A stretch of 64,000 bases of DNA. Origin: Dipteris shenzhenensis. Taxonomy: Eukaryota. This document shows, one piece after another, positions 1 through 53,320 of this stretch. Position 1 is the first letter of the stretch; each line of letters opens with the position of its first letter. Both the position numbers and the translations under genes were made by a program. The stretch lies in NCBI GenBank assembly GCA_047967505.1, contig CM106538.1, one strand, 5' to 3'. A model generated the notes under the pieces. That model saw only the letters and a program-made list of their open reading frames with translations. It did not search any database and was not told where the DNA came from.

Positions 1-2215
1 ATGCTCCATCTCTAGATTATGTCATGTTGACAGATTGTGGTGAGCCTTCATGCTTTGAGGATGCTATGTCTAGGAATGACAAGCATAAGTGGGAGAAGGC
101 TATGCAGTCAGAGATGGATTCTTTGATGAAGAATGCTACTTGGGATTTGGTTTATTTGCCCAAAGGAAAGCATGCATTGCCATGCAAATGGGTTTACAAG
201 CTAAAGATGTCTCCAGCAGATGCATTGCCTAAGTATAAGGCAAGGTTGGTAGGCAAGGGTTTTAAGCAAGAGAAGGGTATTGACTTTGATGAGATCTTTT
301 CCCCAGTGGTGAAGATGACTACCCTTCGTATAGTGCTTGCATTGGTCGCCAGAGAGGACATGGAGCTTGTCCAAATGGATGTAAAAATAGCTTTTCTACA
401 TGGAGATCTTCATGAGAACATCTATATGTAGTAGCCAAAGGGGTTTGTTGTGCAGGGCAAAGAACGGATGGTATGCAAGCTTCAGAAAAGTCTTTATGGG
501 CTGAAGCAGGATCCTAGGGAGTGGTACCATAAGTTTGATGCATTTATGCGATCCCAAGGGTACACACGGAGTGAGACAGATCATTGCCTCTACACGAAGA
601 AGGCATCAGATGGCAGCCTTCTTATTTTGATTTTATATGTTGATGACATGCTTATTGCTAGGAAATCTACTTTGGATGTGGATGCCTTGTCTTTGGGAGG
701 AAGGACACATTTGTTGTTGGATATGCAGATGCTGATTTTGCTGGGAATGTAGACAGCTCGACAAGCGCAGATCCAGGATATCTTTGTAGCCCACCAAAGA
801 GCCACCATGATGCTAGGTTTTGGCTTTTGAGTTTCAGTTTTCAGTTTCCAGTTTTGTGTGGTTTTGGAAGCTCCCCTCAATCCTAGACTACGTGTGCTTG
901 CATATTCAGCCTTCAACTCTAAGTGAACCTGGTACTTGTTGGAGACGTCCTCAAATGGTGCCATGACTAAAGGAGTGTAGAGAAGCAGAAGGTGTGGAGA
1001 TGCGGGCTTGAAGGAGCCGCATGCAGGAAGAGGGAGGGCGATGGAGTCATTGCTAGGGTCCACGGCCTACAATGGCTTACCTACGGTTTTAGCATGGGTG
1101 AGGCCACTCTGATGAAATCTGTTGGGAGGCCGTCTTTACGACTGGCACTAGTTGCCCATACTTAAGACCCTACTATATGTTTTATTTTAAATGTGTTCAT
1201 ACATTGACATGAAGGATTTGGGTGATGCCAGTCACATACTTAACATGAGGATTGTTCGGGATAGGAACAAGAAACTCCTTCATTTGTCACAGAAAGAGTA
1301 CATTAGCAAGGTACTTGAGCATTTCAATATGGAGAGGGGAAAGTCCATAAGTACTCTGTTGCCTTCATATGTGAAACTCAGCCAAGCGGATAGCCCTAAG
1401 TCAGATGAGGAGCGGGCTGAAATGGCAAAGATACCTTATGCATCCGCAGTAGGAAGCTTGATGTATGCCATGGTTGCTACACGTTCAGATATTGCTTTGT
1501 AGTGGGAGCTGTTAGCAGGTAAATGGCAAATCCTGGCAAGAAGCATTGGGAGGCAGTGAAAGGTATCATGAGATACTTGAATGGTACAAAGAACACACCA
1601 GGAGGTCTATTACAGGATATGTTTTCTCATTCACTGGAGGTGCAGTTTCATGGGTCTCTCGTTTGCAGCCATGTGCAGCTTTGTCTACCACTGAGGCAGA
1701 GTATGTTGCAGCCACTGAGGCATGTAAGGAAGCTATATGGCTTACTCGTCTAGTGGGAGACTTGAGCATTGCAGGAGAGGTTCCAGTTTTGCACTGTGAT
1801 AGTTAGAGTGCCATCCAGTTGGCACGGAATCGTATCTTCCATGCGAAGACAAAGCATGTTGATGTGAAGTATCACTTCATCAAAGAGGTGATTGAGGACA
1901 AGCGCATCCAGCTTGTCAAGGTTCACATAGATGAGAACCCTGCAGATCTTCTTACAAAGAGTCTTTCCTCAGAGCAGTTTGCGCATTGCAGAGTATTAAT
2001 GGGTGTCAAATGACATTAGGATGTCCATCTTCTCCCTTAAAGGCGCATTGGCCGTTAAGTGGGAGGGTGTTGGGATAAAGGCCAATAGCCTAGTATATAC
2101 CCCTTTGTACCATACATACATAATAAGAGCTTACCTTGATCTGGGTGAGTTAGCACCCACAATTTCGGTGTTCTCCCTTTCTGTGTTGCTCTCCGATAAG
2201 ACCTCCTCTCCATCA
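1..2215 (+). mobile_element. Ty1/Copia LTR retrotransposon, 3' part (RT, RNase H, PPT, short 3' LTR), degenerate and rearranged
   Basis: KYKARLV, VDDML, YASAVGSLMY, STTEAEY and NPADLLTK motifs; PPT AAGTGGGAGGG then LTR TGTTGGGATAAAGG (2068) to CCATCA (~2215); stops and frameshifts. Confidence 0.92.
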
Positions 2216-2439
2216 ACAGCAGCTATTATCCTAAGAATTTGATGTGATTGAGTATACAGGTTTCAAATTTGTCTGCAAGAAATTGTGGTTTCTTTTTAAT
2301 AATAGCTGGGTATACCTCATTCCATCCCAACTGCATGAACATAATTAAAGTCTTTGATATCTACAAAGCAAAAAGTTTAAATTAGATCTAGACTTTGTTA
2401 TTAGTTTAAATTTCAAATCACTTAAAACATTACCTAATA

Positions 2440-3854
2440 TCATGAGCTTTGATCTATCTCAATAATTGTACTCGCAAGATCTTTGCACTTTATTGTACTT
2501 TCTCTTCTTTGTAGAATCTGCAAATAAATACAATGTCAAAATTGTAACTGAAATAATTAAGCAGAAAATAATCTTAAAAATCTACTTCACCTTCTTGTTG
2601 TTGAGAACAAATGAAAATCCTTCGGAGACAGTGCCCTACGACTTTGTCAAAATGTCATTACATAATTGAGAGAGGGTGCAACATTGCCTGAGTGAGATGA
2701 TGCTCAGCACACTTCCATTCTCAATGACTGTAATTTCAATTAAACCATTTTCTGGACCAAAAGAGTTCTCATTTTGATCCAATGGCACAAGTTCTAAACC
2801 AATCATCCTACTTCATTTGTAGTAGAAAGAAAGTATGCAGTTTTGAGATGAAATCATATATTTCACTTGGAGTGAGTTATGGAGGACCTCACAATACACA
2901 TTGTTGGTAGTTGTCCTGTCCCAATCAGCATCTAGAAAGTTTGGAATGCCATCGTCTCCTTTTGCTTTAAAAGTCAACATGGTCTTGCAAACCTTCATTG
3001 GAAAATCATGAAAAAGATATACAAATACTGTAAGTGGCATGCAAATGTTTATTTTGCCGATTCTCATGGCAATGTTTGGTCTCAAAGACTTCTGCACTTC
3101 TGTGAATAGCTTAGCTCTATATGCTTTTGTTATCATGCCATCTGGAACATGCCAATCAACTGTATTTCGTGTTGGAATATCTTGTTCTTGCAATACACCA
3201 TAAGTATTATCCTTGTTTAGTAATTGGTAAAAGTGGTCATAAAAATATATACCCGATTGAGCCAACTGCACTGCAGGTCTGCCTTGATATTGTAGCTCTC
3301 CGATGGCTCCGTGTAGAACATCAAAGAGTCCCAATATGCACTCCGTTGGCTGCCACTCCTCATACGATGAAGGATATATGTCTAAAACAAGCCAAGAGGC
3401 GATATGAAGATATAATGAACCAACCAAAAATTTGGTTCAAATATGAACTCACTCAAATTGAAAACTTACAATTGGGTCTATGTTGTGGAAGATATGTTGG
3501 ATAATCTTGCAAAACAAGTTCTCGACACATATAGACATGTTGCATCAGGATTTCATTTACAAACCTCCTCCCTTATTTGATTCTGAAATCTTTTCCTCTG
3601 CCCTTCCAAGAAGCCTAGAAGACATTAGCTGATTGTGGTTTCTTCCTCTTGTTGGGTTGCATTAGTACCCATGCTCCTTTTGCCAAGGCTAGTCTTTTCC
3701 ACCTACCATCCATAGTAACAGTACTAGAAAGTTCTATGCACGAGATAGAAGAGGAAGGTCGACAAGATAAACAATTACTCTTCACATCACCATCTTCGTC
3801 TGCATTCGCCACATATCATTTTTTACAGATACATCCATAGTTTGTCGTAGCCAT
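2440..3854 (-). pseudogene. Three-exon decayed gene of unknown family (~417 codons; BAH-like and ubiquitin-like segments)
   Basis: Exons 3854-3470, 3381-2591 and 2517-2440 join in frame across GT-AG introns of 88 and 73 bp; five in-frame stops and no frameshift. Confidence 0.7.
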
Positions 3855-4969
3855 CAAAACCTTTCAAAGATTCCAACTATGAAATCAAAGAGACGAACAA
3901 GATTAAAAGTTAGTACATGTACTATTATTGTTGTTGCTGAAATAGAGCTCTATAATGGTGTAAATGAAAGAGTAAAATCAACTTAGAATGAGCGTACAAA
4001 GGGTGATAAGAGCTTATTGTTATGAAATCGACAGACTAGCAATAACACGGTGCAGGATCCTCAAAGAGAGCTTTCAAAAAAGGCTTGTTGAATAGAGCAA
4101 GAGAGGAAATTGGTGGTTCAGAGAAAGTTTGAAGTGGGAAAGCTTCTTTAGGAGGGAATACGATTCAAAATGCATGTTTTGTCTCAAACATAATTCATAG
4201 TTGCAGTGAGACAGAGAGAAGATCTCGTAAAAATCAAAATCAGAGCTCCTCATTAATGTGGCACGCTTCTAGTAACATAAAATACTATTTCTTTTTCTTA
4301 TTTTCACCTTATTTTGTTGAAATTTCAACGTTACATTGGCCCTTTGCTCATTGGCCTAGAAACTCTTTTCCTAAATCGTAAAAGGCCCCAAAACGAGCTC
4401 CCTTTTTTCCTAATGGTGGCGCCAAAGATGTGTGGGATCGATGGCATGAGGATCTCGAAAGAATGCCAATGGTGCCTCCACTCCAAGCTACTCCTTGTGA
4501 GAGCAATGCAAAGCACGAGCCGTCTGCAAGTGTCACTCAAGTGGCTCCCAGATTGTTGCAATGTGTTTCCACGAAAGAAAGAGGGAAAGGGGAGATGGGA
4601 GAAGAGACGGAGAAGAGAAGAATGAATGGGGATGGAGTGGCAAACACAAAGGCAAAAGAAAACAAGAGAACACCCAAAAACACTCTTGGAAGAGAAGAGG
4701 GAGCTTGTATTCCAAACTTGTGGATCCAACAATGAAGACCAAGGTCAACCACTTGGCCTTTTATACATGTCACCTTTTGAAGGGAGGGCCAACCCTATTC
4801 CCTTTATACCACTCTCTTTCCTCATTCTTTTACAACCATCTTGGGCATATTTGGCTCCAAGGCACAATCCTAGCTCTATGGACTTGCTATTATCCATCAA
4901 ATGACATCACTAACCAGTGGTGGCATATTGTTAACCAATCGGTTAACATAGAGTTAATAAAAGGAGGAC

Positions 4970-5540
4970 TATGAGGAAGAAAGACAACTACCTAAAGTTC
5001 TTAGAAATGGTTGAATTCAACTAAGTAGTCCACCTTGGCCTTCACCAATTATAATGGTAAGAAAATGGATGATACTATATGCTTATGCCATAAATTACAA
5101 ATTTTTATATAAAATCACACTAAAAAAAATATATCATATGTCTTGCATTGATGAGCTCTTTGATCAAATGCAAGAGGCTAAATATTTTAAGAAATTTGAA
5201 AATTTGATTTAAGATATGGATACCACCAAGAAGGAAATTCAAGAAGAAGATGTACCCAAAACATCTTGTATGGGCATTGTCAATTTAGAGTAGCATCATT
5301 TGGTTTAAATCATGCTCTAGAAATGTTTAAAACACTTATGAATAGTATCTTAAGGCCATATTTAGGGAAATTTGCTATAGTCTTTCTAGATGATATCCTT
5401 ATATGCAATAAAACAAGAAAGAAGCATACGTAACATTTTCCAAAGGTATTCCAATTGCAAAGAGATAACTCTCTTTTTTGCTAAGCAATCCAATTGTGAA
5501 TTCTTTGCAAAAGAGATATCATAATTGGGAATATCATATT
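4970..5540 (+). mobile_element. Highly degraded Ty3/Gypsy RT fragment
   Basis: Remnants of SPW-SP-IMVRK, DLRYGYHQ, FGL-HA and IVFLDDIL, broken by many stops and frameshifts. Confidence 0.7.
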
Positions 5541-5559
5541 GAATTGTGAAAGGGCTGTT

Positions 5560-6830
5560 TTAATGCATCGTTCTACTTTTAGACCTTCCCATCGTATCAT
5601 CATAGATCTAGGCATACTTGAGATCTTCTTCAAAGGTTTTGGAAAATTTTATCCTCACCTTTACCCTTGTAATTATCTTTTAGATGTGTCACAAGAACCC
5701 TTACTCTTTGAAACTCATCAATGCCTTTAAGTTTGAGGACCCATTGAGGATTGCTTCTCTATAATAAGCTATATATTGGACTAAGGATATCCCAAGCATC
5801 CCATGCACTCTCACGCTCATTTTCAAAGAAAATTTCCTTTAGGAAAACGTGTTCAAACTCATGCTAATACCTTGGGATTGTCAACCTCTCTAAGTCTTGT
5901 ACCACCTTTTATATGCTTTATTACCTAGGGAAAGACTGGCTTCCACGATTCGTTTTCAAGAGAAGCATATCTAAGTTTATGGAAACCTTACCATTTTTGT
6001 AAGAACGTATTAATACTGTCTCTATTTCTCTCTTTTTCTTCCCCATTATAAATTGTTGGCTTTAGAGTTTTCAATATATTTGAGGTCTCCCCAAGTCAAG
6101 AGGCAAGCACTTCAAATTCGTGTGGAGAGTTGGCAATATATCTCTAGGAATTCAACTTTGGAGTTGATTCGATTCCTTTTAATATGTGATATAATGACAT
6201 AGCTTTCTATTTTTAATTGTTTAAAAACAAAGCTCTAAGATGTCTTTGTGCATAAGGAGATAGATCTCACACCCTCAATGCCCATATGTTCTTGTGCATA
6301 CATCTATTTTGATCTCTTTAAGGAATTCTCTTGGCATGTACTAGTGTGTTCCTTACAAGCTAGTGAATTGTTTGAATTGCTTCAACTTTGCTTTGCTATC
6401 CCTGCTTTGGTAGTTCATTTTGGTGGTTAAATTGTTTTCCCTCGATGATGCATTATTTGGATGCAAATTTCTCCTCATAACAAAAAATGGTCAGTTTTAG
6501 AAGTTGCAATGTTAGATCAATAAGAATTTACGGGACATAGTGTTAAAAATGAATGAAAGCATCATCATGCGGAGAGGACCTTCTTGGGATGATGCTTGCC
6601 TCTAACGAGTTTGAAGTAGGGCTATTGTCCAAGGCGATTTCCTTCATGACTAAGCAGATAATGGATGAGTGTCAGACATTCTTCTTCGCCAGGCCAGGGC
6701 ATCATTACAAACCTTCTCAACTAGACAATGATATTGCTAGCTATAAAGCAACACATATGCTGCACTTATCCGTTAACATAGAGAGACAAAGGCAGATCCC
6801 AAGATTCACTAGAAAGCTTGATACCAATGT
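5560..6830 (-). mobile_element. Degraded Ty3/Gypsy gag and leader remnant with PBS
   Basis: Minus-strand PBS-like TGGTATCAAGC at 6826-6816 next to an LTR-like end (plus TGTGAG at 6828); gag-like remnant ASLSLGNKAYKRW...EFEHVFLKE...AWDAWD at ~5780-5940. Confidence 0.55.
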
Positions 6831-7854
6831 GAGATCTCGACAACTTAGAGACCGCTTCAAATTAACCACCTAGCCATGAGTTCCACATCCGATCCCTTGC
6901 CTTTCCTTCTTGGTTTTCTTGTTCATCCTTACATGACCATCCTCCTTTGGAACTATGCGAAGCTGTCTTTCAAACTGAGTGTTTGACAGTGAGACCCTAT
7001 ATTACTTCATTTAATTAGAGGGCCTTTAGTTGTGCACCATAACTAATGCCTAAGCCTAGCTATAATTTTAGGCCCAAGCCCAAACTCACTTTAATCAAGA
7101 AGTATGGTGATTTTACCTAAAGTTTGAGAAAATAGCTTGAAATTTTGATGAAAGCTCGACCTTAAGACTTTAGGTAAACTCAAAGTCATATCTGAGTTCT
7201 AATCCATAATAATTCCAAGTTTTTTAAACACATAAGCTATTATGGTCAATAATCAAAACCCAAAATTACCTTCTCAATGCATTAGCTAAGCTAACATGAC
7301 ATAAAAGTATCCTAAGAGATTTTCCTATCCTTCTACCAAATTGGCGTTCAGAGTGGAAGAGGGTATTTATCCCTCCCCCTAACTCTCAAGGAATACATTG
7401 GTGTGAGCTCCATCCCTTGTGTCTGATGGCCACCATCTTTGGTGCATCCCATTGAAACTCATGAGGTGAGGGTGATGGTTGGATCACTGTTACTTGCTTT
7501 CGATGGTGAGCCATGACCCAGAAGTTCATTTTGAAATCCATCAAAGGTCATTATTTTGCTTTCCTATGAGAAAAATAATATTGGAGACTCCACTATTTTT
7601 CATCTTTAACTTTAACTAATTTGAGCCTTTTGCTATTTTCTTTCCTTTGAGAGAAACAAATTTGGAGCTTGCGTTATTTTCCACTTATTTCCAACTTTTT
7701 CAACCTTATAAAACCTCCATGTATCTAGATGAAGGGCCCTCACACATTTTCTTCAAGAACAAACTCTCAAGGGAAAGATAATGACTGCCACTTGCCATTT
7801 TCCTTGAGTGGCAAGCTAGGGGGGGCGAGGGGGCTCAAGGATCCATCTTGAGTG

Positions 7855-8125
7855 TTATGCTGCTTGATATAGGGCCATACATGTTTAAGGGTGGGTAAAC
7901 ACTCCCCTCATGCCTGCCCATCTGCTTGAGGGATGGGCGGGTGTGCTTTATACATCGAGGGGACAGGGCAAGGAAAAATCCACAAATGGTTTATGTTGCT
8001 TGATATAGGGCCATACATGTTTAAGGGTGGGTAAACACTCCCCTCATGCCTGCCCATCTACTTGAGGGATGGGCGGGTGTGCTTTATACATCAAGGGGAC
8101 AGGGCAGGGAAAAATCCACAAATGG
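7855..8125. repeat. 136-bp tandem duplication (2 copies)
   Basis: 7855-7990 is repeated from 7991 with a few substitutions; each unit holds the inverted pair CCTGCCCATC/GATGGGCGGG. Confidence 0.92.
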
Positions 8126-9102
8126 GTCTTACCTTTGTTAGCAAGTTAAACGTAGCTTATTGGTTGAACTCTCGTCTTTTGCCATGCTAGGAATGAACGA
8201 GGGAGTTTGGTTGCCCTAGGTTATGTCCAACGATATTTTGCACATCCCATGATATTCATGGCATCCACGTCCTTCCACGCCTCTAGTGCCTTGTAAACAT
8301 GGTAAGAGGCCATTCTCATTCACAGCTAGGGAATGTCACAAAATGCTTGCGCTTGGGACATTGCCACTAGCCCCCTTGCTACTGCAATGCCACATTGTAG
8401 TACCCGTTGGAGATGTGAAATAGTAGTCTGAAGCCAAGCATTACGGTGCTACTTGCTTGCAAACCTATGAGAGACCTTGCAAACCAGTCCACCTACACGT
8501 TTTCGGGTCCCATCATCTTGTTCTGGCCTCCTTTTTTGGGCAGGGAAGTAGTGAGTGGGAAACATTCCTGAGCTCCATGCCAGTCCACGCGACAAGAACG
8601 TCTGGGTTTAGACCACCCGACCACCCATTGAGGAGGAAATATAATTGGAGGATGGTAGCAGTGTGTGGTGGGTCACACTACCCGGCGATCATCAGGCTGC
8701 TAATTTACGTCACCTAACTTGTGATTGGTGTAGAGGTTGGGGGAGATGGAATGAGCCAAGCATATAGCAGATGGAGGAGGTGGCCATGGAGTGGGGTGGC
8801 CTATCAAGGGTCGGACACAAATCTTTTGTGTCAGTGTCCGGGCCGATCCCTCCTCTTAGCCCAAGTAGGACAACACCAGCACCATGAGAATGGCGAGCTT
8901 GGTGGTGTGCACTAGAGACCACCTCTCTAGTAGGAATGAGGAGGAATGGAAAAAGCCTAGTGTGAATTCGACATGCATCGTAAAGGCGATGCATGCAAGC
9001 TTACGCTACCAGTAGTATATTAGTACTAGTACTAGTTAGTGTGCACGCCTTCAACATTGCAAGACTTTGGGCTACTGTTGCCTTCACTCCTTCCACAGCA
9101 TC

Positions 9103-9193
9103 ATGGTTGAGAAACAAGGACGCGATGCTCATGCTGTGGCAAACGAGCTGGTGGCATTCCTCAATGCTTCCCCCACTCCTTACCATGCTGTTC
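9103..9193 (+). CDS. DNPEP: Aspartyl aminopeptidase (peptidase M18), coding exon 1
   Basis: ATG at 9103 translates MVEKQGRDAHAVANELVAFLNASPTPYHAV, the M18 N-terminal F-L-N-A-S-P-T-x-Y/F-H-A-V motif; GTAAG donor at 9194 (phase 1). Confidence 0.9.
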
Positions 9194-9283
9194 GTAAGAT
9201 CCCACCCGTTCACTTCCTCTTTTCCTCTTAATTGCTCCAGTTTTCTGGTTCCTGAATTTGGGTCTTTTCTCTCTGTCCCCTAG

Positions 9284-9419
9284 ATGAGGCTAAGGCCAGG
9301 CTCAAGGCAGCAGGCTACGTGCAGTTATCAGAAAGGGCAGATTGGCATCTCAACGCAGGCGGCAAATATTTTTTCACCCGCAATCACTCCACGATCGTTG
9401 CCTTTGCTGTTGGTGGAAG
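9284..9419 (+). CDS. DNPEP: Aspartyl aminopeptidase, coding exon 2
   Basis: Pyrimidine tract plus TAG acceptor; (H)EAKARLKAAGYVQLSERADWHLNAGGKYFFTRNHSTIVAFAVGG; GTATG donor at 9420. Confidence 0.93.
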
Positions 9420-9511
9420 GTATGTAGATTGTCCTTCCTAAAGAATCTTCAGTGGACTTATGGTCATGTGAAATTCTGGATGAGGTCATGATTCATCTTT
9501 GCATTTGGCAG

Positions 9512-9590
9512 GTATGTTCCTGGGAACGGCTTCATGATCGTTGGAGCTCATACGGACAGCCCGTGCCTAAAGTTGAAACCAGTCTCAAAA
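9512..9590 (+). CDS. DNPEP: Aspartyl aminopeptidase, coding exon 3
   Basis: CAG acceptor; (R)[26 protein letters not shown] with the zinc-ligand motif GAHTDSP; GT donor at 9591. Confidence 0.95.
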
Positions 9591-10760
9591 GTACAGTTGA
9601 ACACGTTTTCTCCCTGTTCACTTATATATACTAATATTATACCAGGTTACCCCCTTTTAATTGTATGTTTGTCGTGTGTTTCGATTCAGCCTTAGACGTC
9701 TTTGGCAAGGATTTCACAAATAATAAGGCACGTCACGGTGGTTCTCAACCATAACATGGGCGGGGGATTGAACCAGGCACCTGACAATTTGATAACGGAC
9801 GATCATATCGTGCACATCTGGCCTTAATATGCCAGTTCAGCATGCCACAGAAGACATGAAATATAACCCAATTTCGCAACGAACCCACTAATGAACATTT
9901 CCCAGTTTGCCAAGTAAACTAAGATCCTATAACTAAAAATGAATGGTCCTTTGGTTTCACATGGATAGAAGTTCTCATTGATTGACAAATGGGCGTGCTA
10001 GGCCACGAGTGAAATTTGTAACGATACTGGCCCCTATTGTATAGCCCATAATCGATCAGAACTGTAAAGAAAGTACTCATGGGCAAAAGACTGTTTCGGG
10101 GAAATTTCTCAAAAGGGTCTTTAGCCATCCTGTCTTTAAATGAATAGGGGGATGAGAAAGTGAAGAAGATAGGGGCATGTTGAAGGGCTGTTGGGGCTTT
10201 AATAATTATGGGATTATTGAACGTTCACAAACTATATGTGGCAATTCCAAAACTAAAATTTATTCGCACAACAAGCGAAAATGTTAAATTGTCTGACCTT
10301 TAAGGTCTGAGACATATGTTGCTAATTCTGCGCCCTATGTGAGGGTGCCTGCTTCATTAGGGAGGCTTGCTGATTTCATTAGGTGCACCCAAAAATTGAT
10401 TTGCAGTGCTCATTTAAACTTTGTATTACTCTTGCGGGGACCACAAACTGCTGAAGTGTTGTCGTGAGGAAACTGTTGATCAGTGTTAGGTAAGACCAAA
10501 TATCTTACAAGTCAATTCTCTTCCATCATGGAAAACCATAGTTGAATCATGTTATTGATTGTTGTCATGCTACAAGCTGAGGCAAAGAAAAGAAGCCCAA
10601 CTCTAGATAGACCAGATGATGTTGTTTATTCGTGTGCGTCTATTTGCTGTGATGTGTGAATGTCTTCTATATCCTTTGTATGGAAGCAAGGCTTCCTCCT
10701 CAATGGTTTTATATAATATGGGATTTGATTCGCTAGTGTGCAATCTAAAATCAAGCTTAG

Positions 10761-13700
10761 TGTCATGATCTGTGATGTATTCCTTTCTCTATACCTTAGA
10801 CTTATGGATGGTTTTAATGAATGGACACTTGTGGAAGGGTATGCCCTTTCGACGGGACACTTCCTATGAGGCACAATCCTTCACAAGAGACATTCTATTG
10901 AAGAGACACTCCCATTGTAATGTACCCTCCATCAAGGGTCACACTCTTCACAAGGGGTACACACCTCTTCATGCACATACACTTTGGAGTACACACCTTT
11001 TCATGTGTGACTTTTCACTCTCTATATAAGAGAGGCCCAACTGTATGAATGACACACTACAGACATTCAAGCAATACAAATATTCCTTGTTCTCTGCTAC
11101 TTCAGTCTCTTTTTTGTTCCTTAGCACATTTCTAAATATAGTAAATCTAGGATGTCTTATAGTGGTATCAGAGCAAATTTCGCTCCTGCTTGTAGGAAAT
11201 GCCCCCCACCTTCTAGCGCCTATCTGATACATCTTTTTCCGCTAGAAGGATATCCACGCACGTTATGCATGGAAGAGATGGAGAGAACGAGCGTAAAATT
11301 TTTTAGTGCCAACCCCACCTAAACTCATCAGTGGCCTCTCCATCTTCCTTACATCACGAGTTGATGTGAATGGACACGACAAAAATCGTGTCTTTTGATG
11401 TGCTTGGGCTGTCCCAAAACCAAGGGACGCACCTTTTCCACCATCAGGCACACCTTTTGATGAAGAGTTTTTGACTCCTCACCCAAGGGACACACCCCAT
11501 CGTGGAAAAAAGGGACACATATTTTCGTGTGGGGACACCCCTCTTTAAAACAGGGTTACACCCCTTCATGAAAAGGTACACCTATTCCAAGGGTCACACC
11601 CCTTAGAATAGGCACACCCTTTGGCACCAAGCACCACCCTACAAAAGGGTACCTAGAGGGCCTAAAAAGCACAACCAGCCCTAAACCTAAGGCGCAACCC
11701 AAGATTACCCTTGCGTCCAAGTAACCTAACCTTTAATTTTTGGGAAAAGCAAGGCCTAGCAGTTATTGCAGCCTTCGCAAATCGGTTTTTGGTGTCTCGT
11801 AAGTCACGTCCTCTTCTCGAAAGTCACGCCTGCTGTTCCGTACAGTCTATCAGGCCGATTCTGCCCCTCCCTTGCTGTTTTCTGCTTGCCAGCCCACACC
11901 AAGCCCACACCAAGCCCACATCAAGCTTGCCGATCTCTGTTTGTAGGTTTTTGCTCAGCCTTTGGCGGCCTTTCATAGTCACGCCAATCATGCCCTCAGC
12001 CTTCTATCTGTTCGCTAGCCTCTGCTCAGCCATGGATGCGTTCCATCGCCCTGAAGAGTGACAGCCTGACGCCAATCTCTGCATAGCCTGCTAGATCTCT
12101 TCACCTCGCCATCTCAGCCTGCGAACAGAGGCCTTGTTGTACAGCAAATTCCCTCAGCCAGCCCCTCTTGTACAAGAAAACATCGTCTCTATCAACAGAT
12201 CAAGCCCCAACTGGTTGATGGTGCTATGCTATTGTTGGCGACATATTTCTGCCCACAACCGGACTGTTTGGTTGCTGAATCGCCTCCCTCTACAGCAAAC
12301 CCTAATTTCAAAATTTGAAGCTTGACTATTGTCTTCTACCAACTTGACATCAGGACCTCCTTCAACTCGGAATTGATGCTGTACTTTTTCCAGCCCAAAG
12401 CCACCCCACTGCTGGTACACGCTTTTTAGCACAGTCTGGCAGATCTAATCTATTCCAAGTGGATTCTTTCCATTCTATTTTTAAGGATTCTCCTTCATAT
12501 TGTTATTTGCTGCTCATTATCAAATTACAGCAAATGAAAGCCCCCTCCTTAAAGCATGGAAACCTCTGGTAATGCCCCAGTCCCTTCAAGGACACCTCAG
12601 GCATCATCTTTCACACAATATCGTGTCCAGATTGCACAACCAGCCCATTTCGGAGCTTTTGCATCGTGGGTCTTCTGTGTCACGTGCCCTTCCAGTGATT
12701 TGGACCACATCCTATACCTTCTGCGTGAGGCACCTCAATTACATTACTTCCTTAGCGCAGTCCAGGTTGTGTTTCACGAGACACGTAGATACCTAGAACC
12801 CGATATTCCTCAGGAGTTTGCTGTCCATCTTTGGAGAGACTTTTACCCCTCAGCTTCAGCATCTCTAGGGTACTCTCCACCTCCTTCAGCTCCCAGATAT
12901 CCTCCTGCACAGGTTTTACCTTCCCCAAGACAGTATTTACACTCTGAAGGCACTCCTTCTCCTGGATATCCTCCACTCCCGACAGTAGCTCCTTATCCCT
13001 TCTCAGATCCGTGGACTTTGCAACCTACCTGTGTACTCTTACGAGCATTAACACCCACTGCGGCATCACTAGTGTTACCTCAGACAGGACCTCCTTTACC
13101 AGATTTCCACGGGTGGTTCCATCCTGCCTCGCCTGCCCCCTCCAACGCAGGTTTGTGCTTTTCTCACAGGGACCTCAGATATGTTGCAACGCTCACGGGC
13201 AGCCTCTCCGGCGATAAGCGACTCAAGTCCAAAAAAGACCCTTGAAGTCAACTTACAAGGCGAAGCACTACTTGAACTTCAAATTTCTCCGCTTTAGGAC
13301 AGCATCTCCGACTTGGTCCAGAAAGTCCAACAACTCCAGGATTCTCGCAGTATCACACATACAGAGGATGACGTGACACCACCAGATGACTATGTGGACT
13401 CGTTCCCACCAGAGATAGAAAACACTGAACTCCGTGCCCTCTACCGCTTACTCCAAGCTTCCAAAACTAAATAAACTTCCGAAAGCCTACATTGGTCAAC
13501 GAAATCGCCAAACAGTTGACCAATGGCTCGCAAAACTGCACATGTACTTTGATACTGTTGATCTCACTGAAGGAAAAAAGATTGCCTTGGCAGCCTCCCT
13601 CCTCAAGGATATAGCTTTCCTATAGTGGCAACGATACTTAAAGGACGGCAAAAGTGTGTTAACTTGGGAACGTTTTGAACACGTGCGCCATAAGCAGTTC

Positions 13701-16700
13701 ATACCTGCCAATGCGGACTTCCAAGCATGTTCAAAACTCTGACAGTTGGAGCAAACAGGCTCCCTATCTTCCTACATCTCTCAGTTCATCACGTTGGTGC
13801 TAGAGATTGATGGTTTAACTGATGATGATTGCCTTCATGCTTTCATCTCAAGCCTAAATCCCTCGTTACGCATTGATATCCTCAAAGCAAACATCACCAC
13901 CACAGCTAGCGCTATTGCTTACGCAGAGCGCATTACCGATTTCCAAAACTCAGGAAAGCAAAGTTCTAATAGAACACGAAACTCTACTATGGCCAAGGAT
14001 GCTCGCCCTCAAGCTAACCCCAAGTTCAAAAAAAACTCGGGTAATCAAGGTCAGCGACAGTTTCAAGATCCCCACAAGTCTTAGAAATCGTATGCTGGAT
14101 CCCAACAGAAGCACTCCTTCAAGGATCGCGCCTCTTCCTCTTCACAAGTCATGACCAACATCACCAACATAAAGGTGCGGCCACTGACAAGAAGAACAAC
14201 TCCAGCACAAAAGGGATTTGTACCATCTGTACAGGCGACCATAGATGGTTCGATTGTCCCAAGTGACCAAAGCGAAATTCCAATATGGAACCTAGCACTT
14301 CCCAAATAGAAGATGCTGCCCCAGCACAAGACAAGAAAGACAAAGCTGTTCGAATGGCAAATACCATCCACATGAGCCTTGCCAGCAACCCCGAACCTTC
14401 CCTAGCCACTCAAGTACTTTGTGTCCAAGGATCGATTCGTGGAACAACGGTCACTATCCTCATCGATAGTGGCTGCTCTCATAACTTCCTAGCTAGTTCT
14501 ATGGTCGAAAAACTTCGGTTGACCACCAGTCCTAGTCCCATGGACTATCAGATTGAACTCGCAAATGGAACTACCTTCTTGTGCAGCACCAGGATCAAAA
14601 ACTTGTCTTTTCGCATACAACATTATACGGACAAGTTGAACTTCGACATCATGTCTCTTTCTCAGTACGATGTCATACTCGGACAATAGTGGCTCTGCGA
14701 CTATGATCCATCAATCAGTTTTCGCAGCCATACTATCCAGTTTGTCCGCCAGGGAAAACTTATTGAGCTAACTGGTTCTAGGGACTCTCCTTCAACCCCA
14801 GTTGCCTTTGTCCTACAAGTAAAGAAGTGGGTTCGTAAATGTCAAGTAAAGACTTCACTTCTGTTGGTTATGGCAGTAGAGGAGACACCAACAAAGGATC
14901 CTCCTGAGTACCTCAACCAACCTTTTTTCCAGCCCTACCTGGATATTTTTCCATAGGAATTGCCAAAGCAGTTACCACCTCGACGACCAGTGGATCACCC
15001 AATCGAACTTATTCGAGGCAGTAATCCACCGTCGAAACCTCCTTATCGGGTTTCTTACACTCAAAATAAAGAAATCCAAAGACAGGTGACTGAACTACTC
15101 GACAAGGTCACATTTGGCCCAGTCGCAGCCCTTTCGGATCTCATGTACTACTTGTGGAAAAAAAGAATAAGTCAATGCGCCTCTGCATCGACTACCGAGC
15201 CCTCAACAAGCTCACTATAAAAAACAAGTATCCATTGCCTCGCATCGATGACCTCTTCGATCAACTTCTACACGCAACACAATTCTCAAAGATTGATCTT
15301 CGTTCAGGTTATCATCAAATTCGCATACGAGAAGGCGATGAGTACAAGACAGCTTTTCGAACAAAGTATGGACACTATGAATGTTTGGTCATGCCTTTTG
15401 GGTTAAACAATGCCCCGGCCACATTCATGACGCTAATGAACGACATTTTAAGGCCTTTCCTCAATAAGTTCGTCATCGTTTACCTCGATGACATCCTCGT
15501 TTTCAGCAGATCCCTACATGAGCACATATACCTAGATGAATCTAGGAACATTCCCAAACTCATCCTCTAAAAACACAACATAGTGCAGTTTCAATCTCAT
15601 GATAGTCACTCACAAGGTTGAAAACCATAAACTCCATCATGCATAGCAAGGACTAGCTACTATGACATCCCCACTGATGTCATCAGCGCCCAACAGTGGG
15701 TGTAGACCATAGTATAAATGTTCTCACACATATAAATCCACAAACCCACACATACTTGAGCATCCATTTATACAAAGTCTTCGTACTGAGTTTCTGTCGG
15801 CACTCCGGAGGTGAAGGGTAGACTCAGCCATGATGAAGGCTAGCACTAAAGGAGAAGGCTAATCAAAAGGTAGTCCAAAATCTCTTCATTCAAGCTACAA
15901 CTACTTGTGAAGTCTAAACATTTTCATTTTAGTCTCTCCCCAACGAGCATCTAAATCTAAATCTAGCTGATAGGGCAACACACCATTTAAGATAGAAAGA
16001 ATTATCACAATACCAGCAGGCCGCAACTTGGACGAAAACTTCACAAGGTGAAATTTGCATGTCCGCTAATACGGTAGAAGCATATACCTAGATGAATCCA
16101 GGAACATTCCCAAACTCATCCTCTAAAAACACAACATAGTGCAGTTTCAATCTCATGATAGTCACTCACAAGGTTGAAAACCATAAACTCCATCATGCAT
16201 AGCAAGGACTAGCTACTATGACATCCCCACTGATGTCATCAGCGCCCAAACAACAACATCTCCACCAAGTTTTTGAAGTTCTCCGCGCAAATTCTCTCTA
16301 CATCACCGTTGAGAAGAGTGAGTTCTTCAAGACCCAACTCGAATATTTGGGACATGTTATTTCAGCTCATGGCATCTCTGTGGATCCCAAGAAGGTCGAG
16401 GTAATCCGAAACTGGCCTACTCCTAAGAATGTTCATGATGTCCGCTCTTTTCTCGGATTGGCAAACTTCTACCATACAAAGGTCTATCAGTTTTCCGAGA
16501 TCGCTGCTCCTATGTCCGAATTATTGAAAAGCACAGCAGTTTTTCAGTGGCTTCTTGAAACAAAGCATAGTTTCCAACAACTCAAGCAAGCACTCACTAC
16601 CACACCAGTTATGGCTATTGCTGACCCAAACCTTCCATTTGAGGTCATGACTGACGCTTCTGACATCGCTACAGGAGCAGTCTTGATGCAAGAAGGTAGA

Positions 16701-18935
16701 GTTATTGCTTTTGACAGCCATAAACATTTCGATATCCAAACCTGATACCCGGTTTATGATAAGGAGTTTCTTGCCATTGTACATGCTTATCGCTCTTGGA
16801 AACATTATCTCATGGGAGCCGACTCGGTGGTCAAGACAGACCATCATTCTCTAAAGTATATCTTTACTTAGTCAGTCATGAACGCTCGACAAGCACGCTG
16901 GGTTGAGTTTCTAGCCAACTTTGACATGACCATTGAGTACATTCCAGGACTACGCAATGTAGTTGCAGATGCTCTCAGCAGGTTAACTCTAGCATCAGCT
17001 ATGGTAATCTCTACATTATCTGTGGATGTTCTGAATTCATTCAAAGGGAAGTATCTCAATGATAAAGACTTCGGCACAGTAGTACAAGTTCTTTCAAAAG
17101 ATCAACCTTCGACTTCCCAACATAAGATTTTCTCATCCTATTCTTATACGGACGACCTTTTGTATTATCAAGATCGCGTTTGTGTACCACATGACAAGGA
17201 TGTTCGACGTCTTTTGTTAAAAGAGCATCATGCAGTTCCTTATGCTGCCCATCCAGGCATCAACAAGACTTACAGGTTACTTAGTGCAACATACTACTGG
17301 CCTCAGATGAAAAGCGATGTCATCAAAATGGTTACATCTTGCTTATCTTGTCAACAAATGAAAGCAAGCCGACGACTTCCAGCAGGACTTCTTCAGCCTC
17401 TTCTAGTTCCAACTGAAAGGTGGGAAAGTATTTCCATGGATTTCATTACAACACTACCACGATCTTCCAGATGTAACACTCAGATTATGGTAATTGTTGA
17501 TCGATTGTCCAAAATGGCACACTTTGTTGCTTGCAAAAGAAGTGCCCAGGCTCCGGACATCGCCAAACTCTTCATACAACACATCTTTCGACACCATGGA
17601 TTGCCCAAGAATATCGTATCCGACAGAGATCCTAAGTTTACCAGTCACTTTTGGATTTCATTGTTCGAATCTTTGGGTACAACTCTATTGTTTAGTTCAG
17701 CCTACCACCCAGAATCAAATGGTCAGACTAAAAGAGTCAACCAAGTTCTGGAAGAAATGCTCCGCCATTATATTCAGTCACGCCTAGCAGCTTGGGAAGA
17801 GTATCTACCACTCCTTGAGTTTGCTTATAATAACTCTTTCCATAGTGCCATCAGCATGACTCCATTCCAAGCAGCTTATGGACACACTTTGATTGTACCA
17901 ACGAATTTTGTACTTCAACATCGAGTGGCCCTAGCTGATCAATTGGTTCAAGAAATGCAAGACATTCTACTCCAAGTCAGGGATCATATGTGAAAAGTGC
18001 AAGAGCAGTATCAACGGTCCATAGACATCACCTGGAATTTGAAACTGGTGACATGGTGCTATTATTTGTAGCCCAACATCGCTACAAGACGGTTAAGTCT
18101 GTGTTTCCTAAGTTGCGACTAAGATACTATGGACCTTTCCGGATCGTCAAGAAAAATTCACCTTTAAGTTACAAATTGGAATTACCACCATCATGGGGTA
18201 AAATCCACCTGACATGTCATATTTCTTGGCTAAAGACGTACATTCCGGGCGATGAAGCTCTTGCAAGTGATTATGTCCGAGAAATCAAAGACGATTATGT
18301 TCTCCTTATTCCTGAGCGTATTCTGGACCATCAACAGCGAGAGAATCGACATCGACTTATCATGGAATTCCTTGTTCTTTGGCGAGATCTGGACGACTCC
18401 GACGCTACTTGGCAATCTGATGAAGACTTACAGCAGTACCGTGACATTTTACAGCAGTATTTTCAGAATTTACCGTGATATTTTCTACATCAGCTGATTA
18501 TCTCCACCAGGGTCTTATTTTGAGTGGGAGGGGATGTCACGATCTGTGACGTATTCCTTTCTCTGTACCTTAGACTTATGGATGGTTTAATGAATGGACA
18601 CTTGTGGAAGGGTATGCCCTTTCGACGGGACACTTCCTATGAGGCACAACCCTTCACAAGAGACATTCTATTGAAGAGACACTCCCATTGTAATGTACCC
18701 TCTCATCAAGGGTCACACCCTTCACAAGGGGTACACACCTCTTCATGCACATATACTTTGGAGTACACACCTTTTCATGTGTGACTTTTCACTCTCTATA
18801 TAAGAGAGGCCCAACTGTATGAATGACACACCACAGACATTCAAGCAATACAAATATTCCTTGTTCTCTGCTATTTCAGTCTCTTTTCTGTTCCTTAGCA
18901 CATTTCTAAATATAGTAAATCTAGGATTTCTTACA
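10761..18935 (+). mobile_element. Ty3/Gypsy chromovirus-type LTR retrotransposon, structurally complete, coding decayed
   Basis: 401-bp LTRs 10761-11161 and 18535-18935 (about 10 substitutions and 2 indels by eye); TSD CTTAG/CTCAG; PBS TGGTATCAGAGC at 11163; PPT at 18522; gag ~13434, protease ILIDSG, RT YLDD, RNase H, integrase 16878-17993, chromodomain EFLVLW...ATW. Confidence 0.97.
15526..16250. repeat. 725-bp insertion in Gypsy RT bounded by 169-bp direct repeats
   Basis: 15525-15693 equals 16081-16249 with one mismatch; RT reads SLHEH|QQHL across the insertion; no TSD seen. Confidence 0.9.
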
Positions 18936-25300: not shown

Positions 25301-25600
25301 ACACTTCTTCCTCTTTTTGGGCACATTGCCTTTAAGTGGGAGATTGTTGGGGATAAAGGCATAATGTGCTATCCCTTGTAAAAGTGGTACTTATAATGCC
25401 ACGTCATCACCTTATCTATTTTTTGTATAAAAGGCAATAAGGGAAGTCACATCGTAGAATTTTTGCTTCCCACAAACTTGTGTTCTCTCTTTTGCTCTCT
25501 CACCTTTCTCCATCTCCCTCTTGCTTCCGCTCCTTGCTCCCATCAATTGCTCTCTCACCTTTCTCCATCTCCCTCTTGCTTCCGCTCCTTGCTCCCATCA
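22393..25600 (+). mobile_element. Non-autonomous Ty1/Copia element (gag N-terminus joined to RT end/RNase H; PR, INT and most RT deleted)
   Basis: LTRs 22393-22592 and 25345-25545 (plus a 55-bp duplication to 25600); TSD AAAGC on both sides; PBS TGGTATTAGAGC at 22595; PPT AAGTGGGAGA; gag 23995-24480; RNase H ORF 24585-25250. Confidence 0.96.
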
Positions 25601-37815: not shown

Positions 37816-40800
37816 TGTAAGATAAGGACTGTCTGGACAGCAACCCTAACTGTGCGGAATAAACTTGAAACACTCTTGAAAAGACTCAGACAATACAGGA
37901 ATAGTACTCACTATATTCATCCACCAAGCGTGGGGGAAAAGAGCCCAAACATACTGCCAAGGTTGCTGGGTAAAATCACATGCAAGGAAGATGCCTCCTA
38001 CTCAGATCTACAGAAGATAAAATCTGCGACACTCTAGTCACGGGGATTTCAAAGGCTCAGTTTGTTGAGTAGAATTGACCCAAAATGGCCACCTATTTAT
38101 AGGCAATGCAGGGACCTAGAGTCTGCTCAAAAATGGCTGACTGTGCAATGCTTACTGCCTGACTTTGTCTGCAGATCCACCCGACTAGAACTCAACCTGT
38201 TTTGGTGCATTTGTGGTCCAGATATAGTCGCCTACTTCCCAAGCTATAAATTGGCCCTGGCAGTGGCTTAAGCATGCTCTTTTTGATGACCTGCTCCAGC
38301 CAAGGATGCCATGTTGACCCGTGGCAGTTCCGGCTTCTGTTCTAGGACTTGCCAGTCCACCATATGTGCTGTAAACCCTACGCAATGCTCCTGTCCAGGT
38401 ATACTCGCTATCTACAGTGCCTTGACCAATTATCATCCTCATTTGGGGACTCATAGGTGGATTAGTGGCACGGCAACATCCCCTCTCCATGACTCGACTG
38501 TGGGCCAATGCCCATGTGTCTGATGAGAAACTCTAGCTGCTCTAGGAATAGTGTTGGTTAAAATATCGGAGATTTTGTCCTGTGTTAGGCAATACAGCAG
38601 CTCTATGATCTCGTCCTGGATCAGCTCCGAAATGCGGTGACACTGAAGCTCGGTGTGCTTCGTACGAGTGTGGGACAGTGGGTTCTTTGCAATCGCTATG
38701 CAACTCATGTTGTCGCACCTGATCACCACCACCTCCTTCTGAAGAACTCCCATGGCCTCAAGTATCCATGTGAGCCAAATGGACTCGCATGCTGCCAAAC
38801 AAGCTGCCCTATATTCTGCCTCCGTAGAAGATGGCGCAATTGTAGGTTGCTTCTTGCTTGGCCATGATATGGCACCCTCTACAAGCGTGAAGCAGTAACC
38901 TGAGTTGAACGCTGTGCATTCCAATTCTTTCCCAATCCGAATCACAAAATCCTTCGGGATTACTACCGGAGCATACATGATCCCGCAGCTGGTTGTGCCT
39001 TTGAGGTACCTGACAGTCCTGAATCCAGCCTTCATGTGATCCTCCCTTGGTTTGATTGAGAATTGATAGAGTACTCCAACTGCAAAAGCTATGTCAGGCC
39101 TGGTATTTGTTAAATACAGCAAACTACCAAACATTCTCAGGTATGTTGCTGCATCTACCGACTGAGAATGCTTCATCCCGACCTCCATTGGAGTTGGTGC
39201 TTCTTTGCAATCCTGCATCTGAAATCTCTTCATCACCTCTTGACAGAACCTTTCTTGACAAATGAATATGCTATCATTCTTTTGTCAAACCTCAATGCCA
39301 TGGGAATAATCAAGAAACCCCAGATTTGTCATTTTGAACTCTTGCATCAAGATCCTTTGACCACTTGGATCTTCCTCTCATGATCGCCTTTGATTATCAA
39401 ATCCTCAACATATATCATGGTCTTACTCCTTCTATGGCAGATAGAGGTTAGGATCAGACGGACTACGAGATATCCCAATCTCATGGAAGTAGTCATCAAC
39501 CATGTGGTACCATGCCTTCGGGGGCTGTTTCAGCCCGTATAATGCGCTGTGAAGTCTGCACATCTTCTTCCCACCACCTGGATGTCGAAACCGTTCTGGT
39601 TGCTCAACATACACTTCTTCTTGAAGCACATCATTTTAAGAAGGATGCTTCACGTCCATCTGCAACTGATGGTGGGCTGCCAAAGCCATGATGGTGTGGA
39701 TGGTAGTTCATTTTGGCTGTAAGGAGCAAATGTCTTTCCATAGTCAACTCCTTCTGCTTGTGCGTAGACTTTGACCAAAAGTCTCACCTTGTACTTAACC
39801 AAAGTGCCATGTACTTAGCACGATAAACCCATTTGGTTCCTATAATCTTCCTCTTTCGGGGTCTATCAACAAGATCCCAAGTGTGGTTCTTTAAAACGAC
39901 ATCCATCTTTGCTTTCATACCAGCCCACCACTCTGGTACTCCATTTACTTCTTCAAAGGTTCTAGGTTCCACCATATTCTAGTTAAGGCGTAGTTCATGG
40001 TAAGGGCTTTTCTTTGAGACCTCCTCAACTCCGAACTACCCTCCCGAATCTTTGTTGCTGCTGAATCCTTCAAGGTCTTTAGGGACCACTTTTGTAGCAT
40101 TCTTTCCTTCGCCGAGGTTGGTCTTGTTGGTGTGGGTGCCTCAGACTCTTTCTTTGATTCTTCGGCTTCTAGTTTCTTTGTCTCCTCTTCTTGTGTGATA
40201 GCAAGTCTCTGTCTTTGGGGAGTAGTTGGAGCTTCCAATGTAGTTACTTGTGGCTCTAACTCTTGGAACACCACATCTATGCTTACCACCGGCTTCTTCA
40301 TTTCTGGTTCGTACAATTGATATGCCTTTGACTCTTCACTGTATCCAATGAAGATACACCTTTTGCTCTTGGGATCCAACTTGCTCCTATCTAGAATAGA
40401 AATTCCTTAAATGAGAAATTATAGGCTTCTTATCATAATAAGCTTTGTATGTAGTCTTCCTTCCACCACTTTGGTCTTTAGTCTATTTAGGATGTGGACA
40501 GCTGCACGGACTGCCTCACACTAAAAAGATCTAGGAAGCTTCCTCCTTCTAGCACACACAAGCCCATTTTAGTGTTTGTGTAGTTCTTCGTTTTAGCCAC
40601 CCCGTTCTATTGGGATGTGTGCGTCATAGGCAGCTGTTTTTTTATCCCTTGCTTCTTGCAGTGGGCGTCAAAAGCCCTAGAGATAAACTCTCTCCCCCCC
40701 CCGGTCAGCTCAAAAGGCTTGATCTTCTTCTCTTGATCCATGCCTTCCACTCTTGGAACTTGGTGAAGGCTTGAGACTTCTTAGCAATACAATATATTCA

Positions 40801-46600: not shown

Positions 46601-47287
46601 TGGGTCCTTTGCATCCAAGCCACAATCCATAGGGATCCCAACCGGCACTGGTCAACTCCATAGGCAGTGCGGGATCGTCTCTAGAACTTCGTCTAAGCAG
46701 CAGTGCCATCACCCATCCACCCGCATTTGCTCCAACCAAGGGCATGTGGCTAAGCCCCTGTGGGGTTGACCAACCAGAAGAAATAAGAGATCTATCGTGG
46801 CCATATGTTGGACCCGCCCAAAATCTAGTTTTGACCTCTTGGGGCACCTATTGCTCAACCCAATGTCTCTCTGTTGAAGGAGTCCATGCCGAGGCCTCCA
46901 TCTAGAGCCCGCATCCCTATTCGTGTCGTCTAAGAATAGAAGGCCACATCATCCACACGCTCTGTGTGGCCAAATGTAGACAACCAAAACAATGCTCCCC
47001 GATCCCATTGGATCTCCCGAAGGGGCCAGCCTTCCAAAGCCAAGGGCACCATTGGGGTGCATCCTGATCCGAGATACTAGTAGAGTCAATGAAAAACTCG
47101 TTGCTCAAACGGCCCACTACCTTGATTATCTGCCATTGAAGCAAATCTAGGCTCCCATCCCTCGGTCACTGCAATGCCCAATAACAATCCTCAAGGGTAC
47201 CCTTGTCCTGGAAAATTGACCCAACCGCTCGCTATCTGCCCATGTCTGAAGTGCTGCCCTCTATGACTTAGGAATGGTTGCATCTGT

Positions 47288-47336
47288 CTCTCTCATCTAA
47301 TCCTATCTACTCTCCCTCCTTTTTCCTCCTTGCAGC

Positions 47337-47378
<42 letters not shown>

Positions 47379-53300: not shown

Positions 53301-53320
53301 TTCTTTCTTTCTTTCTTTCT
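47288..53320 (+). mobile_element. Full-length but decayed two-ORF LINE, RTEX-like
   Basis: TSD CATCTGT at 47281-47287 and 53321-53327; C-rich 5' UTR; ORF1 with coiled coil plus RRM-like region; ORF2 APE (LVGDCNART, VVDY), RT (FVDFCKAFDTV, GCPLSPTLF, YADD) and C-terminal CCHC (CTLC...ETEEHFIFRCPVY); (CTTT)n tail. Confidence 0.93.

Follow-up and report, generated by a model that had tools for sequence, protein, structure and literature searches.

Does the minus-strand locus at positions 2440-3854 of a 64,000-nt stretch of Dipteris shenzhenensis DNA (contig CM106538.1 of assembly GCA_047967505.1; the whole stretch is called the window below) hold a gene, what would its product have been, and can this copy still make it? 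A first-pass annotation, drawn from the letters alone, had proposed a three-exon gene with a cysteine-rich N-terminus, a BAH-like region and a C-terminal ubiquitin-like (Ubl) fold, possibly borne by a transposable element (TE). The locus has the exon-intron structure of a large protein family and belongs to it, it is inactivated by five nonsense codons, and the folds of both ends of the family protein can be assigned: a very divergent BAH domain at one end and a Ubl domain at the other, with a domain of no known fold between them. The locus is very probably a non-processed pseudogene of this BAH–new domain–Ubl family, and the window copy cannot make the protein.

A three-exon gene with five in-frame stops

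Joined by script from the window sequence, the minus-strand segments 3854-3470, 3381-2591 and 2517-2440 run in phase over 1254 nt (385 + 791 + 78) and give 417 codons followed by a terminal TGA at 2442-2440. The joined frame contains exactly five internal stops and zero frameshifts, against 24 and 27 stops when the joined sequence is read in its two other frames, so the gene model of the first-pass annotation, with about 417 codons, five stops and an unbroken frame, was reproduced. The large open reading frame (ORF) of the region measures 207 aa from stop to stop (2813-3436) and is one part of a longer gene. The parts of the gene and of its predicted product are listed here; relatives are numbered P or L, alignments A, and X1 is one sequencing run, its kind guessed, in which 14% of the query words occur.

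3470-3854, minus strand: exon 1, with the ATG at 3854-3852, 128 codons plus one base and three in-frame stops; residues 1-31 are unconserved, and from residue 32 (window position 3761) onward the exon codes for the BAH-like domain, N-terminal half
3382-3469, minus strand: intron 1, 88 nt, phase 1, GTAAGT...TTTTAG
2591-3381, minus strand: exon 2, 791 nt, with two in-frame stops; the BAH-like domain (C-terminal half), the middle domain and the greater part of the Ubl domain are encoded here
2518-2590, minus strand: intron 2, 73 nt, phase 0, GTGAAG...TTGCAG
2440-2517, minus strand: exon 3, 25 codons plus the terminal TGA; it encodes the last strand region of the Ubl domain
3816-3818, minus strand: stop TGA at codon 13, within the unconserved N-terminus
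3615-3617, minus strand: stop TAG at codon 80, where relatives have W (P0008, L001) or L (P0123)
3573-3575, minus strand: stop TAA at codon 94, where relatives have Q (P0008, L001) or E (P0123)
2813-2815, minus strand: stop TGA at codon 318, where the X1 contig has CGA, and P0003 and P0004 have R
2636-2638, minus strand: stop TAG at codon 377, AAG in the X1 contig, a transversion away
3179-3761, minus strand: BAH-like domain, spanning intron 1, equivalent to residues ~6-189 of the P0045 model as mapped through alignment A4
2762-3166, minus strand: middle α/β domain of about 135 aa; the sequence modelled was that of the window itself, with the stop at 2815-2813 entered as X
2443-2743, minus strand: Ubl (β-grasp) domain, spanning intron 2, equivalent to residues 336-418 of the P0045 model as mapped through A4
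2316-3879, no strand assigned: block in common with one X1 contig, introns included, with unlike flanks on both sides

Homologues sharing the intron positions, which the first-pass annotation had left to be looked for, were found, and both predicted junctions recur in them. Junction 1 (..HRPN|YIYPSS..) is spliced in P0130 (RHRPNYIYPSN) and P0035 (PRCNYVYPS), as well as in the intact proteins P0045, P0060 and P0082 (..CNYLYPS..); the unspliced P0008, P0123 and L001 run on as ..RPN-C-K.., as expected when T|GTAAG at this junction is read through. At junction 2 (..NNKK|ILQRRESTIKCKDL..) the spliced form is matched by P0007, P0009, P0010 and P0036 (..VLERRESHIKCREL.. and similar), in P0003, P0004 and P0013 the sequence turns intron-like and departs from the family alignment just past the junction, and P0177 carries an in-frame insert that is read through to an exon-3-like end. 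Because both junctions are reproduced in this way, we conclude that the three-exon gene is real and that its intron positions are common to the relatives.

The gene belongs to a family of apparently uncharted architecture

Exon 2, with its stops written as X (P0001), matched six ORF products in a word-index search, the best of them with E 5e-95 and 56% identity along the full (100%) length of the query. A profile made from these exon-2 relatives (A1) then matched 203 proteins at E ≤ 1e-3 among 1.84 billion cluster representatives, 117 of them at E ≤ 1e-10 and 32 at E ≤ 1e-30; the 203 relatives are clusters at 50% identity. Exon 1 gave no candidate as a word-index query and matched P0008 (E 3e-25), L001 (E 3e-27, from residue 32) and P0045 (E 2e-6) when compared with the relatives. 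Two intact proteins, P0045 (418 aa) and P0043 (412 aa), have the size and layout expected of the repaired window product, whereas P0060 (373 aa) ends before the last Ubl strand region. P0036 (594 aa) represents a cluster with 29 members, drawn from Logan and JGI data, the full-length ones of which measure 593-594 aa. No longer relative was present among the 592 candidates of the word-index search. The window copy retains every invariant column of alignments A1 and A4.

Pfam returned no BAH or ubiquitin match, either for the window segments at E ≤ 1 or for 154 relatives (11 of them scanned at E ≤ 0.1 and 143 at E ≤ 0.001), and the gathering threshold of the BAH model PF01426 was reached by none of these sequences. 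The sole match above a curated cut-off among the 154 relatives was a retroviral SH3-like domain, carried by P0069, a chimera. Two sub-threshold matches on the window segments, to Translat_reg (E 0.023) and DMAC1 (E 0.038), were set aside as chance. An organism name was attached to three of the 20 clusters looked up, and all three are Adiantum entries called 'hypothetical protein'. The combination of BAH, middle and Ubl domains corresponds to no Pfam family, and no description of it came up in full-text literature searches. The architecture, which the first-pass annotation had not recognised, thus seems to be an unrecorded one.

Other collections yielded little: profile A1 had 0 matches at E ≤ 10 among PDB sequences, P0007 found no usable match in the ESM Atlas, and of the 69 pattern matches in a scan of viral contigs, 0 were relatives. 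The metagenome scan with A1 produced, from 325 pattern matches, one relative contig, L001, of 1858 nt and too short to show neighbours. In L001 intron 1 is present, intron 2 is absent (..NGTRVLKRRELQIKCKEL.. is continuous) and the frame appears to break at about 1061-1097; the contig represents either an incompletely spliced transcript assembly or a pseudogene that lost an intron.

The N-terminal part is predicted to adopt a BAH fold

The intact P0045 was modelled with AlphaFold2 from the 104-row alignment A2, in which the window segments were included, and the model had a pLDDT of 89.4 and a pTM of 0.79. A Foldseek search of the PDB with this model gave 79 matches at E ≤ 0.001, and every row among the matches listed was a BAH-containing protein: TNRC18 (8ds8, E 6.6e-6), BAHCC1 (6vil, E 2.3e-5), Orc1, EBS, DNMT1 and Sir3, and further ASH1L, AIPP3, MET1, SHL, DIM-2 and ZMET2. 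In a comparison with 48,161 PDB representatives by VIA-align, ranks 1-9 were all BAH proteins, with Z 13.4-11.2 over P0045 residues ~6-189; ORC1b stood at Z 13.4 (rmsd 2.8, 131 aligned), PBRM1 at 12.2, ASH1L at 12.1, EBS at 12.0 and TNRC18 at 11.6. The stated background of the method is Z 7-8, and both these matches and those of the Ubl domain described below stand above it. At the sequence level the family profile A2 found a single BAH domain, that of BAHCC1, with a weak match (E 0.061). The likeness to BAH domains that the first-pass annotation had read from two motifs was therefore borne out on the P0045 model, and the BAH-like region covers both motifs.

The C-terminus is a built-in ubiquitin-like domain

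In the model of P0045, residues 336-418 show the secondary-structure order β-β-α-β-β-(α)-β of the β-grasp fold. VIA-align placed them closest to the UBX domain of PUX5 (9v9o; Z 10.8, rmsd 1.8, 75 aligned), followed by the Ubl domain of TBCE (Z 9.3) and by SUMO, ISG15 and the Ubl domains of USP proteins down to Z 8.4, and the family profile A2 matched SUMO2 by sequence at E 0.005. The C-terminal β-grasp domain was thus correctly guessed beforehand, on both structural and sequence evidence. The UBX match exceeds the generic Ubl match by no more than about 1.5 Z units. UBX domains have a conserved F-P-R loop that inserts into the N-domain of p97, and no FPR string was found in the Ubl segment of the window or of P0045. 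A C-terminal Gly-Gly is likewise absent, the window product ending in ...IIEIDQSS, P0045 in ...LIVVPC and P0036 in ...LEVKEC. As there is no terminal Gly-Gly, the Ubl is taken to be an integral part of the protein and not a conjugatable modifier.

A middle domain without a fold match

Between the BAH and Ubl domains lies a separate part that is missing from the first-pass account. Its model, built from the 83-row alignment A3, had a pLDDT of 92.1 and a pTM of 0.84, and shows a long helix and, after it, a mixed sheet containing a long hairpin. Compared with the 48,161 PDB representatives it gave 0 matches at Z ≥ 5 (best Z 4.0), and with Foldseek it gave 0 matches at E ≤ 0.001 both in the PDB (best E 0.048) and in the viral library BFVD. 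The invariant and near-invariant residues of the domain are mostly aromatic, Gly or hydrophobic and contain no obvious catalytic set, for which reason we read it as a probable interaction domain. A match of profile A2 to ZW10 over this region (E 0.025) was taken as chance, because the fold searches of the domain show nothing similar.

The extreme N-terminus

The cysteine-rich N-terminus did not hold up as a domain, since homology to the relatives starts only at residue 32 (RPSS...). Window residues 1-31 contain four Cys and one stop, and no match to them was found in the exon-1 word-index search or in the comparison with L001, which shows a differing Cys pattern in its own N-terminal stretch.

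The 593-594-aa form represented by P0036 has an N-terminal extension of about 200 residues with a zinc-ribbon-like CxxC...CxxC motif, which scores 24.2 bits against Zn_ribbon_LapB, narrowly below the cut-off of 25.7. A zinc ribbon in the window N-terminus was considered and rejected: P0036 aligns with the window only from its residue 186 on (tblastn), and the C-x-C...C-x2-C arrangement of the window occurs in neither L001 nor P0123.

Decay of the window copy

The window copy combines disabling mutations, the five stops, with the introns of its intact relatives; because the introns are retained, it is not a retrocopy. One contig of X1 is about 94% alike over 2316-3879, with 85 differing letters and 20 gap letters, and the similarity reaches no further than 25 nt 5' of the ATG and 124 nt 3' of the stop codon. 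A second X1 contig has only 3572-3680 in common with the window, and two further runs, X2 and X3, yielded no contig. The first contig is free of at least two of the five stops, having CGA at 2813 and AAG at 2636, and since relatives also have R at the former position, the window underwent a C>T change at a CpG there.

This last change agrees with the earlier proposal that the stops arose by decay of methylated cytosines, each being one transition from a sense codon. The stop at 2636 does not, as it differs from X1 by a transversion, and the argument itself discriminates nothing, because every TAA, TAG and TGA is one transition from a sense codon. Over the shared block the window has A/T where X1 has G/C at 36 sites and the reverse at 28, with no clear excess. 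The observed/expected CpG ratio is 0.37 in the gene, 0.45 in the whole window and 0.30 in the neighbouring Copia fragment, so CpG decay is regional and not specific to the gene.

Several observations weigh against the reading of the locus as a non-processed pseudogene of a chromatin-adaptor family. The X1 contig has frame-shifting indels relative to the window (+1 at 2727, -1 at 3511), so the X1 copy looks broken too, and the two copies are either orthologous pseudogenes or members of a dispersed repeat. Five stops without a frameshift in 1254 nt make a somewhat unusual decay pattern. The fold evidence for the BAH and Ubl domains comes from P0045, which is only 24-27% identical to the protein of the window, and the Pfam BAH and ubiquitin models match neither the window segments nor the 154 relatives. 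Opposite the Y of PYIGRI and the W and Y of KWFY in BAHCC1, which we take to be methyl-lysine cage residues, the family has W, H and Y in the weak HMMER alignment (E 0.061), so that reading of histone methyl-lysine by the family BAH is no more than possible. The adaptor function, finally, is one that we infer.

Transposon cargo as the alternative

The alternative that survives best, and which we nevertheless hold to be unlikely, is that the gene is TE cargo, either captured or encoded by the element (for example as a chromatin-targeting or anti-silencing factor), and that the window contains one decayed copy of it. The gene locus does lie within retroelement debris, the nearest parts of which are the following.

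1-2013, plus strand: frame-broken Copia-type pol (RVT_2 at 3-431 and 1191-1502), context outside the gene
5200-5433, strand opposite to the gene: Gypsy-type RVT_1 fragment

These Copia and Gypsy neighbours belong to different superfamilies and both lie on the other strand. The TE-borne idea of the first-pass annotation, which was to be checked by looking for a transposase within shared terminal inverted repeats (TIRs), found no support in the window, where no transposase or pol adjoins the gene on the same strand and where no terminal inverted or direct repeats (TIRs or long terminal repeats, LTRs) bound the block. In positions 1-12000 the sole inverted pair is a 20-nt, AT-rich, 85% complementary one at 619-638/5107-5126, within the two pol fragments. 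The family is large and fragment-rich, with its 203 clusters at 50% identity, as a mobile gene might be, and an identical protein, P0047, is found in two accessions of A. capillus-veneris; the 64-kb window, however, has no second copy of the gene, and the flanks are unique within it. Some members look decayed or chimeric (P0148, P0083, P0110, P0123), and P0069, with its Copia integrase SH3-like domain, and P0058 are chimeric ORFs, yet P0069 is the only one of the 154 relatives with a TE domain above the Pfam cut-off, and the contigs of the intact relatives are transcript-sized (1.4-2.3 kb) and hold little besides the ORF. That the first X1 contig shares 2316-3879 alone, with unlike flanks, and the second 3572-3680 alone, would fit a mobile block, but TE insertions specific to one lineage, beside an orthologous gene, would account for unlike flanks equally well, and the likely Copia LTR, which starts near 2068, ends about where the shared block begins (2316).

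The likely boundary of this Copia copy lies at 2030-2084, which resembles 56626-56681 (minus strand) and 25320-25360 (plus strand) at 86% identity and is likely the polypurine tract plus LTR start of related Copia copies, with the LTR running from near 2068. The two chimeric ORFs are both from Adiantum nelumboides: in P0069 the Copia integrase SH3-like domain PF25597 (108 bits) is fused with about 70 residues that belong to the BAH domain, in its C-terminal half, and P0058 has 87 family residues inside a 668-aa ORF. They are likely gene-model read-throughs in TE-rich DNA, or cases of exon capture. The integrase part of P0069 matches 40260-40541 and 58086-58268, both on the minus strand, at E 6e-10 and 1e-16 (tblastn), and by their sequence these are further Copia-type integrase remnants.

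Elsewhere in the window, the body of a Gypsy-type retroelement occupies 13743-18478 on the plus strand, with RVT_1 at 15094-15570 (E 5.6e-30) and integrase zinc-binding and core domains at 16872-17993. Two tandem copies of a 135-nt unit, 97% identical, lie at 7855-8125. The region 46001-54000 has a G+C content of 0.49-0.54, against 0.37-0.47 elsewhere, with a strong negative GC skew at 46-48 kb.

A functional gene or a chance arrangement

It could also be argued that the gene works, the five stops having come from errors of assembly or sequencing or being overcome by read-through or RNA editing, an explanation that we find highly improbable. The frame is unshifted over 1254 nt and all family-invariant residues are kept, as in a functional gene; five independent nonsense codons, on the other hand, are far above what base-call errors would be expected to produce, and no RNA run is listed as containing the window sequence. 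At two of the stops the DNA of the X1 contig has other letters, and we therefore regard the stops as ordinary substitutions. U-to-C editing occurs in fern organelles, and each stop is one T>C change from sense, which is the direction of such editing. Stop-removing U-to-C editing is, to our knowledge, restricted to organelles, and it was rejected here as a way around the stops in view of the spliceosomal GT-AG introns and nuclear retrotransposon surroundings of the locus. That ORFs are arranged here by chance, without any gene, a reading that has nothing beyond the presence of the stops to recommend it, is already refuted for practical purposes by homologues at E 5e-95, 203 profile matches, splice junctions reproduced in relatives and a reading frame with 5 stops against 24 and 27.

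Discussion

The non-processed pseudogene reading implies an ancestral product of about 417 aa, which would have consisted of a very divergent BAH domain, the α/β domain of about 135 aa and a non-conjugatable, built-in Ubl. Intact members of the family may be chromatin-binding adaptors. By analogy with solved BAH proteins, their BAH domain would dock on the nucleosome or on a histone tail, while the Ubl and the middle domain would recruit a partner, for example ubiquitin-system machinery or machinery of the segregase or proteasome type, with the middle domain as a family-specific interaction surface. As to the decay, either of the two sequences, window or X1, may be interrupted by insertions near the gene, which would fit a loss of expression followed by the accumulation of mutations.

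The domains at either end of the protein are of known kinds, BAH and Ubl; what has no description in Pfam or in the literature searched is their combination, the extreme divergence of the BAH from the Pfam model and the middle domain without a fold match. It is conceivable, though we consider it doubtful, that the intact members form an undescribed class of chromatin proteins, present in ferns and some other eukaryotes, in which a divergent BAH with a His-containing pocket, a new fold and a Ubl together link a histone or nucleosome mark to ubiquitin, proteasome or segregase machinery. A bolder version would have the family expanded through, or acting in, transposon control in giant fern genomes; if true, it would explain the many decayed and TE-chimeric copies. 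Taken alone, the window locus contributes little: as a dead copy and ordinary pseudogene it serves mainly to mark the family and the CpG decay of the region. For ferns, where chromatin biology is little studied, the family gives structural and biochemical studies a concrete object.

Comparison with known systems

One of the main means by which silent chromatin is read in plants and animals is the BAH domain, with EBS/SHL, AIPP3, BAHCC1, TNRC18, ORC1 and DNMT1/CMT as examples. The P0045 model shares the distorted β-barrel BAH fold of the plant readers EBS/SHL, AIPP3/BDT1 and ORC1b, with Z 13.4 to ORC1b (5hh7), 12.0 to EBS (5z8n) and 11.3 to AIPP3 (7cce), and Foldseek E values of 2.5e-5 to 1.9e-4. 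In the weak alignment with BAHCC1, the BAH landmarks aromatic-x-G-R-I, V-x-V-x-aromatic-x-Y, L-Y-x-S-x-x-E/D and F-F/Y-Y of the family fall opposite one another. Unlike EBS/SHL and ORC1b (both BAH-PHD) and AIPP3, the family has no PHD finger, TFIIS or AAA module; its BAH is followed by the new α/β domain and the Ubl, and falls below every Pfam BAH threshold. The cage of H3K27me3-type BAH domains is made of one Trp and two Tyr, according to the review PMC13068663, and its 'Trp at the back' aligns with a His in the family, in a weak alignment. TNRC18, BAHCC1 and the DNMT1/MET1/ZMET2/DIM-2 enzymes are large multi-domain or enzyme-linked proteins, whereas family members measure about 410-600 aa, and neither a methyltransferase nor a Tudor or coiled-coil part was detected in them.

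At the other end of the protein, the UBX domain of PUX5, the Ubl of TBCE, SUMO and the Ubl domains of USP7 and USP11 have the same β-grasp fold as the family C-terminus, which differs from SUMO and UBX in having neither the Gly-Gly nor the F-P-R loop. Proteins of the UHRF1 type have a built-in Ubl and chromatin-reader domains (TTD/PHD/SRA) in one polypeptide. The likeness to them is a functional analogy only, a Ubl with a chromatin reader in both, for which no homology is claimed: the type of reader (BAH against TTD/PHD/SRA) and the domain order differ, and the family is without a RING. Beside these systems, the family adds a domain architecture in which a BAH is coupled to a built-in Ubl through a domain that has no relative among solved folds.

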